Source of the DNA: Carpediemonas membranifera BICM
Taxonomy: Eukaryota > Protista > Fornicata
Length of the DNA stretch: 64,000 bases
Direction: 5' to 3'
Assembly (NCBI GenBank): GCA_019828565.1
Contig: JAHDYR010000011.1
Location: forward strand, 6,972 to 70,971
Below, piece by piece: positions 13,670 to 58,344 of the stretch. The notes below the pieces were generated by a model that was not told the DNA's origin, did no database searches, and was given only the letters and a program-made list of their open reading frames with translations. Made by a program: the position numbers and the translations under genes. Every line of letters begins with the position of its first letter. Within the stretch, counting starts at the first letter, position 1.

Positions 13670-13933
13670 CTTTTACAACAAAATGTTTGCCGCTAGCTCT
13701 CCTAGCCGCCAGCTAGCTGTCCTAGCCTCTAGACATACTTGCTCTACCCAACGGGGATATCCCACCGGCAACGAGCATAGTGGAATGGCTTGCAGGCACG
13801 CTTGCGAGCCCAAACCGACCGTCTCCTCGAGAGACCGCGTCAAAGAATGTCTGTTGTGGCTTACATCTGCCGTTGTAACGCGTGTCAGCCCCACCCTACC
13901 TAGCTCTCCCAGCCACTAGCTCCCGTCAGAGAT

Positions 13934-15238
13934 TTAAAGTGGTGGTTGGAGAAGGATGGAGGCCAGGTGTCCCTGGACCCCCGGGTGTGTGCGGACCCCG
14001 TTGCCCATATATCTCAGCATGCTTTTCGTGGAGGCCCACGTCCCCATGGACAGGAGGACTTCGGTACTCGTGTGGGCTACCGCCAACTCCGTGGTGGCGC
14101 CCTTGCGGAATGAGTGCCACGAAATGTCGGTGCCGTACGCCTGGTGGATCCAGTGGCGAAGGGTTGACGCCGGTAGCGGCTTCGATAGTGAAATACCACC
14201 GGTTGAGGTGATCGCCCGCCAGATGAGGTCGTCGTCGCGGCGCGTTGCCGTGGGGACCCATGCCTTCAGGGCCCTTGCTGGGTTAAAGCGGGCCCACGAT
14301 TGGTTTGGTACCAGCTTGCGGACGCCTGTGGCAGTCTTAGTTCTCGCGAACAGAAGGAGGGCATTGCCATCAGCGTCGAACTCGACGTCTCTTCGTCTGA
14401 GCCCAAAGATCTCTGCGCCTCTACTCACGGTGATAAAGCAGAGAGCAGAAAAGAGGGCGGCCTGGAAGGCTTGGGGTGACTTCCGATGTCTGTCTATGAC
14501 CTTGCGGACTCTCGCGGACGTGACAGGCTTCGCACCCCCGGTCAGGCCTTCTACAGAGGCGACGTTCCGGGCGGCGGCGATTATCTGCTTGGCAGCGGTC
14601 GGGGGGCGCCAGTCAGACACGAGTGGGGCGGCCTCGCAAATCCAGTAGCCTTTCCTGTGTATCGACTGTGGGCCCGACGTGGTACCCTCGGTCAGAAGGA
14701 ACTCTTTGAGCTGTTGCGCGTGTGAGTGGCTCGCGTTGCGGGATTGGAGGAATTTGGCGACCCAGCCCGCTGCTGTGCGGCGCGACGATTCGTTTCTGAA
14801 ATGTGATAGTCGGTCGTCAGCGAGGAGGGCTTGGAACGGGTCCTCAGGATAAGCGCCACGAAGCGGATCTTGCCCTTGTCTGTCGCTGTCCAGGCTAGCT
14901 CGGACTGCAGGAGGTGTTTCGCCTGGACTCTGAGGTACAACTTGAGGGGTGTCAAACGTTTGATGGCTCGGACCTCGGGCGAGTTGAGGTCCGGGCACAG
15001 GACTATCGCCGCTGATCTCCAGTGTCGAGGGTTCCCAGTCTGGGTCGAGGCGCGTATTGTCTGGAGGCGACGACACGTCACTCCAAGAAGGGCTATAGGA
15101 GGAGCTATATAAATCCTGACTCCCCTCCAGTCCATCTGGAAGCCGTTGTCGTGGATTGACCAGGCTATTTCTGCAAAGCCTGGTAAGGCCAGAACCTTGT
15201 CGGGGCGTGCTGTGACGTCGATCTCGACCGGCCCCCAC
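13934..15238 (-). CDS. Tyrosine recombinase of DIRS-like element #1
   Basis: Catalytic motifs SRGAEI (R), RTKT (K), HSFRKG (HxxR), GTW...MLRY (W/Y). True start uncertain. Confidence 0.9.
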   Translation of the reverse strand: MGAGRDRRHSTPRQGSGLTRLCRNSLVNPRQRLPDGLEGSQDLYSSSYSPSWSDVSSPPDNTRLDPDWEPSTLEISGDSPVPGPQLARGPSHQTFDTPQVVPQSPGETPPAVRASLDSDRQGQDPLRGAYPEDPFQALLADDRLSHFRNESSRRTAAGWVAKFLQSRNASHSHAQQLKEFLLTEGTTSGPQSIHRKGYWICEAAPLVSDWRPPTAAKQIIAAARNVASVEGLTGGAKPVTSARVRKVIDRHRKSPQAFQAALFSALCFITVSRGAEIFGLRRRDVEFDADGNALLLFARTKTATGVRKLVPNQSWARFNPARALKAWVPTATRRDDDLIWRAITSTGGISLSKPLPASTLRHWIHQAYGTDISWHSFRKGATTELAVAHTSTEVLLSMGTWASTKSMLRYMGNGVRTHPGVQGHLASILLQPPL

Positions 15239-16710
15239 TTGCGCATGATGGTTTCCAAGACTTCTCGGGGTGACGACCAGTCGAGCTTGGCGAACCTGGA
15301 GAGCCTGTCCGCCTGGACATTCAGGTGTCCGGCAATATGGAAGCAGTGGACGTCGAGGCGCTTGGTTTCTGCCGTGTTGTAGATGTCCTGTAGGATCTGG
15401 TGTGCGGCTGGGGGAGGTTCGGCGATCCCCGTCTGTTTACCCAGCTGATGGCAGCTGAGTTGTCGGCAAAGACTGTGAGAGAGGAGCGTGACTCCTGCTG
15501 GGGCACGAGATTGATCGCCTGAGCGATCGCGAAGAGCTCCTTGACGCCAATGTGTTCCCCCTTGAGATGAGGGGGGGAAGGCACCCTGTGATGCCGCTCC
15601 CTTCTCCCCATTGAACAGGCATGCTCCCCAGCCGGACGTTGATGCGTCTGAGGTGACAGAAATCTGGAGCGTATCGCGTATTTCCCAGTCCGCTCTTGCT
15701 TCGGCGAACCTCTTGGGTGGGCGATCGCGGAGGAGGACTTGCCACGCCGCCAGCTGCCTGCGGATTTGGCTGGAGAGGTGGACGGTCTCCGTCGTAGGGG
15801 TGGCCTGCAGTGGTCTGAGTGCGAGGCGGGCGAACTGTGTGGTCCCTGCGAAGAATGACAGACGGCCTAGGAGCTTCTGCCAGTCTGAAGCTGTGATGGA
15901 CCCGACCCGGAGGGCCTTGGAGATCGTGGCCGTGTAGGCCTCGGCCTTGTCTTTTGAGATTCTTAGGGACTCGCTTGCGGTGTCTATGTGGACACCTAGG
16001 TAGTCTACCTGCTAGGTCGGCGTGAGGACGCACTTGTTGAGGCCCGGTATCGCCCCCAGCGATAGCATGAGGTCGATGATCTGCGGGGTGACCGAAGCTA
16101 GGTACGATGGGGAGGCATGGGACACTAAGAAGTCGTCGAGATAGACCGCGATGGTCACCCCGAACCTGTGTGCGATGATCTTTGCAAGCTGTATGGTCGT
16201 GCTCTGGAACACGTACGGCGCCGCTGTCCATCCGAAGCCGAGTGTGTTGTACCTGAATGCGCGGCCGTCCGGTAGGACCACGCCTAGGAGGGGGGAGTCT
16301 CGCGAGGCGACGCCAAGTTGGTGGTATCCCGATGCTAGGTCTATCTTGATCATGTAGTCGTTCTTGTGCAGATTGCGGACCGCCCGTCTGATGCCGAACA
16401 GACGAAACACCCTCAGCTCTGCTGTCAACTCGTTCAGGGCTCGGAGGTCGTGCACGGGGCGGACATCGTCTTTGCCCTTCGACACCGCGAACAGGGGTGC
16501 GCTGTGACGCAGTTCGTCTATCGGGCACGGGGAGAGGACGCCCTTGGCGACTAGCTCTTCGATCTTCGGGAGTAGGCGGGGGTCCACTCGCCTTTGCGGT
16601 TCTGGTGGAGGGGGCGCAGAGGTGAGGTGGATAGGGACGCCATCCCGCAGCCAGCTTACTACCTCGGGGGAGGCACCGAGTCTTGCCCACACCGGCCACT
16701 TTTTGTTCAT
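14692..16710 (-). pseudogene. RT-RNase H-methyltransferase-like pol of DIRS-like element #1 (stop at 16012, further frameshifts)
   Basis: IDLASGYHQ, LGFGWTAAP, YLDD; SDAS.SGWGA, KELFAI, FADNS, HIAGHLNVQADRLSR; WGPVEIDVTA...W...YIAPP. Confidence 0.88.
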
Positions 16711-16719
16711 TGACGGGAA

Positions 16720-17266
16720 CTGAACATCTGTGGCAAGGGCTACTTCTTGTGCTTCTTGTGAAACCCCCCTTTGTTCTGGGGCTGGTCCTTTCTCTTACCC
16801 TTGGCTCTGGCTTTGGCTGCGCAGTAGGAGATGGCACGGGGGTTTTGGTCTGGGACGTGTTGAACAAGTCGAGAAACAGTTCGCAGGTTGCGTCCGACCA
16901 GTTGTCGTCCTTGAGGTCCAGAAGGGTACGGCGTGCTTGGAGTTCCACCAGGAGTCTTGCTTTGAGCGGCTCGTCGTCGAGGGCGTTGACGATCACCATC
17001 ACGCGGCGAAGCCACTTTGCTTCCGCCTTAAGTGGTCTCTTTGTCGGAAGCTCGCCGTATGCATCCATCTCTGCCAGTGTTTGGTCAATATCCGCTTCAT
17101 CTTGTTCAGGGAAGAAATCAATTTGAGATTCCTTCGGCGGCTCGGTCTCGGGCGGCGGAGGAGGCGGATTAAGCTTTGCAAGCTGTTGCGAGATGGTAGC
17201 GATTGAGGCTTCTAGGTTATTGAGCCTCGTTGCCGTCGGATCTGGATGTTCCGAATTTTCTACCAT
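16720..17266 (-). CDS. gag-like ORF of DIRS-like element #1
   Basis: First ORF of the element with an N-terminal coiled coil; homologous to the gag of element #2 (ELP.K....EAK.LR..M). The frame stays open to 15437; the end given is approximate. Confidence 0.65.
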
Positions 17267-17389
17267 TCTGCCCGCATAAACTGCGCGGCTCGCCTGGTCG
17301 GCGCATCACCATGCCGGAGCGAGGCGATCTCATTGCCCTCCGCTCACGGCCCGTTACCCGAGGTAACCTGTCAGCGCGATGTAACGCCA

Positions 17390-57075: not shown

Positions 57076-57658
57076 GAGGTTGGTTTGCTGTGGGACGCTT
57101 TGATCATAGCCAGAGCTTGAATGACGGGAGAAACCAAGGAAAGATGGTACGCCTCATGATCTGGCAGACCCAGCCGACCGCTGAAAGTGTTGGGACGAGC
57201 GAGGTCGACGAATTAGTGGCAGTGATGTTGTAAAGTGACACAACTATGCAATATTATGTGCTGCTAGACAACAGTAGTTGAGTGTTGATTGATCGTACTG
57301 ATGCTCTATGGGGATGCCAACAGCATCCCTTCTAACCCTGCTTGTAGGTAAAACCAATGGGGGGTAGAACATTTACTGGTCGTTTGAGGCTCAAACTGAT
57401 CGAATGTTCGCCCGGTTCGGGTTTGGACCGGGCCGTGCTGGTACGCACGAAGTAAACTCGTGTTTTCGAGCTTCTGTTCTCCTTGACTCCGAGCCAAAAT
57501 CGAGCGACCGAATTTTACGTCCGCGCTTCTCGCGCCGGAGTCGTGTCGGCGCAACTACGCGCCCTCTCACTCGCAGAGTACTCCTCGCTGACTACAGGCA
57601 GCTCGTGTCACCTCGGCGTGACGGCCGAAATATTTACACAGCTCAAAATATATGATAC

Positions 57659-57948
57659 TGGCACCACATCAGGTGTCTGAGATTTATCACCTCGGGTGAT
57701 GGGTTTTGGCGCAATGTGCAGGATAAGGACAATGCCAGAAGAGTTGTCGCTAGCAGCGACGGCGCCAGGACCGACGCTGGTCAAGGCCAGTGTACCTGCT
57801 CGTCAGGTAAGGCGAGCCAGTTCGACTTACCCAGAGAATGCCAGGTGGCGGTAAGTCCCGAATATTTACATAGCAAACCAGGGGTTTCTTGTAAATATTC
57901 TTCCCCCGTTGGAAAGACGTCGTATGTCATAAGGCTTGGTTATCAAGC
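57659..57948 (+). mobile_element. Mini YR-element unit E
   Basis: TGGC-N3-ACATC start, ATCACC-TCG-GGTGAT hairpin, CAAG-loop and GGTAAG-loop hairpins, CCCCCGTTGG..GTATGTC, terminal GCTTG-N5-CAAGC. Confidence 0.6.
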
Positions 57949-57989
57949 GATCCTGATCCGGTCCCGGCAGGTCGTGTAATCAAATCAGG

Positions 57990-58293
57990 ATGGCCAGTTC
58001 GAATGGCCGACGAGACTTCGGACGCGGGGCGCCTACCTCATTCTCAGATCGCGGCCGGAAACCGCCTCGCTCCGGCATGGTGATGCGCCGACCAGGCGAG
58101 CCGCGCAGTTTATGCGGGCAGAATGGTAGAAAATTCGGAACATCCAGATCCAACGGCACGATACTGGTCAAGACCGGTATATCCGCCCAGTAGGTAAGCT
58201 GGCCGGAGTCCCCTGATCGTTTACACTAGCTCTCTTCTTTAATAAACGATCGCCCCCCCCGTTGGGTAGAGCAAGTATGTCTAGAGGCTAGGA
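57990..58293 (+). mobile_element. Mini YR-element unit C, a non-autonomous relative of DIRS #1
   Basis: 58063-58158 is the reverse complement of 17231-17326 (1 mismatch); 58257-58293 is the reverse complement of 13720-13756 (identical). Left boundary approximate. Confidence 0.85.
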
Positions 58294-58344
58294 CTGGGTT
58301 AACCTGCGCGCAGGATAAGGAAAGCGATGCTTATACGTAAAATT

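Follow-up and report, generated by a model that had tools for sequence, protein, structure and literature searches.

Do retrotransposons carrying a gene for a tyrosine recombinase (YR) select the 3' flanks of tRNA genes as integration sites? This question is raised by a 64,000-nt stretch of contig JAHDYR010000011.1 of Carpediemonas membranifera BICM (hereafter the window, meaning the whole stretch analysed), which is DNA of an intron-poor eukaryote. A first-pass annotation of the window had proposed that DIRS-like YR retrotransposons end just downstream of tRNA genes, always in convergent orientation, and that tRNA 3' flanks are landing pads for this group. For the present analysis tRNA genes were called by ARAGORN and Rfam across the whole window, and gaps were counted from the discriminator base of the tRNA to the right end of the YR unit, with trailers read in the tRNA sense. 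The YR retrotransposon copies are designated DIRS#1-3, their non-autonomous mini units miniB-D, and two non-long terminal repeat (non-LTR) elements RLE-A and RLE-B (Table 1).

Exactly three tRNA genes (Asp, Leu and Glu) were found in the window, and at all three the right end of a YR unit lies just past the tRNA 3' end and antisense to the tRNA. Each trailer passes through a T-rich terminator and then enters the right end of the opposite-strand unit. The gap is 22 nt at tRNA-Asp, where DIRS#1 (minus strand) ends at 13692 and the tRNA at 13669, 17 nt at tRNA-Leu (DIRS#2), and at most 50 nt at tRNA-Glu (miniC). DIRS#2 (plus strand) ends at 23710. The next 29 nt (23711-23739), made up of a 17-nt trailer and the final 12 nt of tRNA-Leu, are identical to 27521-27549 at the other end of RLE-B. 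A 38-nt block is 100% identical between DIRS#1 (13719-13756) and miniC (58257-58294), with gaps of 49 nt to the Asp and 50 nt to the Glu discriminator. The first-pass annotation was right in placing the ends of DIRS#1 and DIRS#2 22 and 17 nt past the tRNA and in having all three units point head-on into it, and its 50 and 51 nt for the shared block are correct as coordinate differences. Since the terminal hairpin of miniC lacks its 3' arm and the next 20 nt are left-end-like by eye, the true Glu gap may be nearer ~30 nt. A profile of the right end recovered six ends in the window, all in the three tRNA-anchored groups; miniC was outside the tight training set of the profile, yet was found at E 3.5e-5. 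The sole further match in the window was weak (E 3.5), the host-gene region contained none, and the reversed sequence gave nothing under E 0.78.

Of 40 candidate stretches from a metagenome scan with the YR alignment, five were confirmed as loci, all of them in a single other assembly, and ARAGORN found no whole tRNA in these five. At the very end of one of them (L004) Rfam matched the 3' half of a tRNA with anticodon GTT (tRNA-Asn, E 6e-4) on the opposite strand; a short truncated mini follows the YR right end (3639) head-to-tail and stops 18-22 nt short of the Asn discriminator. The L004 element is only about 68-74% identical to the window elements over short stretches, and it represents a different element family at a fourth tRNA type with the same geometry. 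Three further loci (L002, L003, L006) stop short of any flank, at most about 330 nt from the YR match, and the fifth (L005), a circular contig with one YR element and then an RLE related to RLE-B (38% protein identity), was not significant for a tRNA end. Among viral contigs the RT (reverse transcriptase) profile gave one distant locus (L001, 27%, no tRNA) and the YR profile none from 30 candidates, and prokaryote genomes gave 0 of 44. B-box-like motifs in both orientations, with no Rfam tRNA match, were seen in the 3' region of the L002 element (3550-3590 and 3690-3710).

The geometry holds at 4/4 informative sites (Asp, Leu, Glu and Asn; 17 to at most 50 nt). The feature is genuine and recurs in a second genome, the evidence amounting to four sites, and we consider it highly probable that these YR elements have a real preference for tRNA 3' flanks; the notion of landing pads is supported by the three window sites as well as by L004. 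In rough estimates of chance, of which that for the window is post hoc, three convergent ends within 50 nt have a probability of 4e-7 even if only 6 kb is open to insertion, and of 4e-6 if five units are allowed. At least one case like L004 in five loci has a probability of 0.012 at the window's own, probably high, tRNA density. In a gene-dense genome, transposable elements might survive only in tRNA-adjacent islands and pile up near tRNA genes with no active targeting; gypsy and RLE elements do crowd the same regions, and a mini-like candidate end (candE, see below) lies on the 5' side of tRNA-Leu. Such a pile-up does not, however, account for a single element type, the same end and a narrow distance at all four sites (rough p of about 5e-4, with assumed frequencies), and we regard it as quite unlikely.

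The units are not single, a point missed in the first-pass annotation: two of the three window tRNAs face head-to-tail stacks. The group pointing toward tRNA-Asp consists of the DIRS#3 remnant, miniB and DIRS#1, that toward tRNA-Glu of miniD and miniC, while DIRS#2 stands alone toward tRNA-Leu. DIRS#3, recognised by a tblastn YR match at 18333-18046 (minus strand), is the most disrupted unit of its stack and lies farthest from the tRNA. The 14 kb between tRNA-Asp and tRNA-Leu is made up of two groups back to back, joined at ~18328 via short microhomology, and of RLE elements. Stacks recur in L003, with two mini right ends stacked at its left, and in L004. In the minis, a left end that reaches to the first gag codons is joined by a hairpin linker to a right end; an origin as tRNA-derived short interspersed elements was ruled out, as they have no T-arm or B-box motif and no Rfam match. 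Just left of the miniD-miniC pair, 57507-57520 holds a 10-nt inverted match to the terminator region of the tRNA-Glu trailer, possibly by chance.

Each complete right end comprises a C-tract, a 25-30-nt block and a terminal hairpin with 5-bp arms around 5-6 nt. The hairpin was predicted in 8/8 complete ends folded, the z-scores of the whole segments being mostly weak (-2.8 to +1.2), and its arms co-vary between families (GCTAG/CTAGC, GCTGG/CCAGC, GCCAT/ATGGC, GCTTG/CAAGC). In another possible division of the units, which was not adopted, elements would end at the C-tract and a 38-50-nt block would begin the next unit; this fits the last mini of L004 and one 10-nt internal match, but DIRS#2 and the L005 element end with the full block.

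The stacking, which had been overlooked, allows self-targeting to explain part of the pattern. The YR would recognise its own right-end palindrome as a lox-like site, with two 5-6-bp arms around a 5-6-nt spacer, and insert into earlier copies, while tRNA flanks would merely hold founder sites kept by weak preference or survival. The stacks of the window, L003 and L004 agree with this, as do the similar hairpin sites with GAxAG spacers that flank DIRS#1, the extra hairpin between DIRS#1 and the trailer, and the profile comparison with solved structures, in which Cre was closest to the YR (7e-11). DIRS-1 inserts into itself (PMC5006619) and has a 3' hairpin that is also described as a possible RT primer (PMC7192593), the latter taking force from the self-targeting argument. 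Self-targeting also leaves unexplained why stacks of different families end 17-50 nt from four tRNA types, and the arms and spacers differ between neighbouring units, so that we judge it unlikely.

DIRS#2 fills exactly the space from an RLE 3' end to the duplicated target of RLE-B; this position and the composition of the circular L005 contig would suit a landing that depends on RLEs: tRNA-specific RLEs would make or mark the site and the YR element would follow, or RLEs would cut at YR ends, the link to tRNA being secondary. At Asp, Glu and L004, however, no RLE lies between stack and tRNA, and RLEs, where seen, are on the 5' side; we give this explanation very little credence. The simplest reading of the Leu site, though not proven, is that RLE-A, DIRS#2 and RLE-B arrived in this order, each landing beside tRNA-Leu.

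The four trailers have only the 4-mer TTTA in common, within the T-rich terminator, and no tRNA sequence is carried, regenerated or duplicated by the YR units at the window sites or in L004, which makes recognition of tRNA sequence unlikely. Bacterial island integrases read tRNA-gene sequence directly, and a YR that reads the terminator or the T-arm/acceptor palindrome in this way, with no RNA polymerase III (Pol III) factor, would be in keeping with the T-rich terminator of all four trailers and the short distance. With nothing shared beyond TTTA, and with YR units that differ in carrying no tRNA segment from bacterial tRNA-targeting integrases, which recombine within the tRNA gene and restore it, such direct reading appears highly improbable.

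The fixed distance and orientation suggest instead that the Pol III machinery acts as a tether, a role shown for TRE5-A and Ty3 (PMC5911963). In the positional model that we favour, DIRS/PAT-type YR elements and their minis would integrate by position and not by tRNA sequence, landing immediately past the oligo-T terminator and ~17-22 nt from the tRNA 3' end, their right end toward the tRNA. The element RNA would be reverse-transcribed into a circle, perhaps with the terminal hairpin as its own primer, an idea put forward for DIRS-1 (PMC7192593), and YR or Gag would be held at the tRNA gene by the Pol III machinery, either TFIIIC or the terminating polymerase. The YR would then join the circle junction by recombination to a trailer core of 3-4 nt. 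The presence of AGCA at both DIRS#2 junctions fits a short crossover core; for DIRS elements, the junction of the circle is believed to recombine with a trinucleotide that matches it (PMC3266345, PMC7192593). Repeated events at one spot would push older units outward and so produce head-to-tail stacks with the newest unit beside the tRNA, and minis would be moved in trans. This integration model, with the right end of the YR element facing the tRNA, seems to us reasonably probable.

The conserved terminal hairpin may be an RT primer in one reading and a lox-like site in the other. Integrons build ordered cassette stacks using a YR, and a tentative extension, which we hold possible though doubtful, is a eukaryotic integron-like system in which a Cre-like YR from a retrotransposon, docked on tRNA genes, works with a self-renewing hairpin attachment site past the terminator and adds ordered cassettes in fixed orientation. 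If so, each tRNA 3' flank would be an ordered insertion record of full elements and small non-coding cassettes.

Several observations weigh against the preference for 3' flanks or the positional model. The informative sites are only four, three in the window and one in the other assembly. At one of these, DIRS#2 adjoins just a 12-nt tRNA fragment, exactly at an RLE junction; its link to the working tRNA-Leu rests on the inferred order of events, and the site could instead be a retrotransposon junction. In L005, too, an RLE adjoins the YR element; a candidate 12-nt tRNA end at this junction is not significant (126/2500 background segments scored as high), the junction letters also fit an RLE start-codon context, and the two pattern-scan matches yielded no natural tRNA having that end. 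The mini-type motif TAAA-N4-9-C5 occurs five times in the window (0.5 expected), three times in the known minis; the other two sites, candE (27889, plus strand, 270 nt upstream of tRNA-Leu) and candF (57375, minus strand), lie off 3' flanks. The pairwise score of candE was reached by 0/150 shuffles, but in a profile built without both sites candE had E 0.59 and candF E 5.7; both may be exceptions to the 3'-flank rule, as yet not established as such. At Glu and in L004 the tRNA-proximal unit is truncated and not the most intact, a poor fit to a newest unit next to the tRNA. Finally, no targeting domain was found in Gag or YR, and an atlas search with the DIRS#2 Gag gave no lead (best score 0.78).

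Table 1. Features of the window that bear on the tRNA-anchored groups.
Feature	Position	Strand	Description
tRNA-Asp(GTC)	13597..13669	+	ARAGORN, Rfam; 3' trailer with oligo-T terminator anchors stack 1
DIRS#1	13692..17389	-	gag-like open reading frame (ORF), RT-RH-MT (reverse transcriptase, ribonuclease H, methyltransferase), overlapping YR ORF; C-tract block and two terminal hairpins at right end
miniB	17390..17700	-	Non-autonomous; DIRS#1-like left end (~80% identical), hairpin linker, right-end block; head-to-tail before DIRS#1
DIRS#3 remnant	17706..18333	-	3' part of YR and right end; head-to-tail before miniB; absent from the first-pass annotation
RLE-A	18328..20120	+	Non-LTR, 5'-truncated, internally deleted; 3' end abuts DIRS#2 left end
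DIRS#2	20121..23710	+	gag-like ORF, open RT-RH ORF, overlapping YR ORF, terminal hairpin
Duplicated target of RLE-B	23711..23739	-	Last 12 nt of tRNA-Leu and 17-nt trailer
RLE-B	23740..27520	+	Full-length non-LTR element between DIRS#2 and tRNA-Leu
tRNA-Leu(AAG)	27538..27619	-	ARAGORN, Rfam
candE	27850..27956	+	Weak mini-like right end, 5' side of tRNA-Leu, still antisense to tRNA
miniD	57690..57947	+	Non-autonomous, complete right end; head-to-tail before miniC; left boundary approximate
miniC	57948..58294	+	96 nt 99% identical to DIRS#1 5' region, hairpin linker, 38-nt block identical to DIRS#1
tRNA-Glu(CTC)	58345..58417	-	ARAGORN, Rfam; anchor of stack 3

The coding content places the elements in a known order. 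Both long copies are compact (about 3.6-3.7 kb) and encode a short gag-like ORF, RT-RH with a degenerate Dam-like MT, and an overlapping YR ORF (RVT_1 E 2e-17 and 6e-20; Phage_integrase E 2e-6). The YR catalytic residues R129, K157, H231, R234, W257 and Y266 are invariant in eight sequences. In DIRS#1 the RT is interrupted by a stop (TAG at 16012-16014) and the RH by a frame break, its YR keeping R/K/HxxR/W/Y, and DIRS#2 has one frame break in YR near 23100. MT was weak in DIRS#1 (E 0.003), gave no match in DIRS#2 at E up to 1, though the region aligns, and was found in 5/5 close relatives (E 7e-3 to 3e-7). Open frames overlap between YR and pol in DIRS#2 (20562-23168 over 20707-22695) and in DIRS#1 (13934-15436 over 14692-16011).

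The termini gave a different result. DIRS1-like inverted terminal repeats (ITRs) measure 66-316 bp, and left-versus-right comparisons of DIRS#1 and DIRS#2 were at background (227/300 and 119/300 shuffles as high), that of L005 being marginal (12/300). For the internal complementary region (ICR), a partial inverted match to the right end was present in L004 (6/300), DIRS#1 and DIRS#2 having only 8-10-nt matches, and one in ten inverted end-versus-internal tests was at or under 15/300. Split direct repeats, which PAT-like elements have in the arrangement A1...B1 A2 B2, were limited to one 22-nt direct B1/B2-like match in DIRS#1 (2/300), with none in DIRS#2, DIRS#3, L004 or L005, and the A2 copy of the PAT-like split repeat was absent in the five tested. 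With the element ends provisional, the junctions of DIRS#2 share AGCA and not the NTT trinucleotide that DIRS1-like elements carry at both ends. The combination that marks Ngaro-like elements (no MT, ORFs usually non-overlapping, split direct repeats) was not found. The elements belong to the order DIRS and are DIRS/PAT-type by their ORFs, but were negative in both terminal-repeat tests; the label DIRS-like given in the first-pass annotation stands for RT-RH-MT and the overlapping YR and does not extend to the termini.

In an RT tree of 36 rows, which used 26 of 41 search matches and included no named DIRS reference, the two window RTs and five relatives formed one clade (seven rows, support 100/97). 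Among named YR relatives, the nearest carry annotations as Carpediemonas membranifera proteins, and one such protein matches a window fragment with 100% identity over 34 aa. The same clade includes at least eight additional divergent YR proteins of C. membranifera, annotated as hypothetical or misnamed, which indicates that the lineage is diverse in that genome.

Compared with DIRS1- and PAT-like elements (PMC3266345, PMC7192593, PMC6681497), the window elements are alike in gag, RT-RH-MT, overlapping YR ORFs, absence of target duplication, the 3' hairpin and a possible short crossover core, and differ in having no ITRs, no clear ICR or split direct repeats, a length of 3.6-3.7 kb, an RT clade of their own and a location at tRNA 3' flanks. 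Two dictyostelid elements likewise insert a short distance downstream of tRNA genes in a compact protist genome: the Ty3/gypsy element Skipper-2 of Dictyostelium discoideum, which inserts 8-23 bp downstream (PMC5006619), a range that agrees with the one proposed here, and the L1-type TRE3, which inserts 40-150 bp downstream in the same orientation as the tRNA (PMC5006619, PMC5911963). These use a DDE integrase or target-primed reverse transcription, whereas the window elements use a YR and, unlike TRE3, run antisense to the tRNA in head-to-tail stacks that include minis. In Leishmania braziliensis, TATE (PMC6681497), also a YR retrotransposon, forms tandem clusters at one fixed position in a multicopy target, which there is the telomeric hexamer sequence, whereas here the landmark is a tRNA gene with flanks that have no common sequence. 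Dada DNA transposons (PMC3706591, PMC8869645) also use tRNA genes as safe sites, but are DDE transposons that insert inside the gene by sequence, whereas here the element is a retrotransposon and the tRNA gene is untouched.

In the excerpts returned by a full-text literature search, the coverage of which excludes Repbase Reports and subscription journals, targeting downstream of tRNA genes was found only for Skipper-2 and TRE3. For YR retrotransposons the only site preferences found were that of DIRS-1 for itself, of TATE for telomeric repeats and of Cafeteria Ngaro for virophage DNA, with no case of tRNA targeting, an earlier note on these families being possible. Spaller et al. examined tRNA association across dictyostelid retrotransposons including DIRS-1, which they place at centromeres and regard as self-targeting, and by 2020 the specificity of DIRS YRs had not been studied experimentally (PMC7192593). 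The word 'tRNA' is absent from the main text of PMC3266345, PMC6681497, PMC3783388, PMC6387122, PMC8547959 and PMC12477816.

The window elements are a new combination of a known element order (DIRS) with a known targeting strategy, with stacks and minis in addition. If the preference is true, a further element class, in a lineage far from yeast and Dictyostelium, would have a safe site in the 3' flanks of tRNA genes. With its landmark, distance and orientation all fixed, such a family offers a defined target for an integration assay, the crossover core being readable from filled and empty alleles, and a compact recombinase that inserts whole elements in one orientation beside a multicopy gene, without target duplication, is of interest for gene delivery.

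RLE non-LTR elements also lie at the tRNA genes, which bears out the earlier statement that each tRNA is used by a second mechanism. They occur on the 5' side of tRNA-Glu (58405-64000, in tandem) and of tRNA-Asp (10264-13596), both tRNAs being directly preceded by GTAAAT, and the first 13 nt of tRNA-Glu are duplicated at about 62805-62817. RLE-B at tRNA-Leu differs in that the last 12 nt are duplicated, antisense. They appear to be RLE families with a cut site 12-13 nt within the end of a tRNA, perhaps through recognition of the quasi-palindromic acceptor stem. YR and RLE elements alternate directly in both genomes, in the order RLE 3' end, YR, RLE 5' end (L005; window 18328-27549).

Host genes occupy ~34.8-57.1 kb of the window (Cdc20-like, APC5-like, ITPK and TmcB-like), and blocks rich in transposable elements flank them on both sides. 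Chromodomain-bearing gypsy elements with very short LTRs (119 nt) were seen at 4697-8722, 8782-10150 and 28310-34668, and a chromodomain gypsy element with a 73-nt LTR interrupts the gag of the L005 YR element (L005 347-4886). A 27-nt near-palindrome between two of the window gypsy elements (8740-8766) recurs with 93% identity at 41382-41408, just upstream of a host gene that we take to encode ribosomal protein L34.

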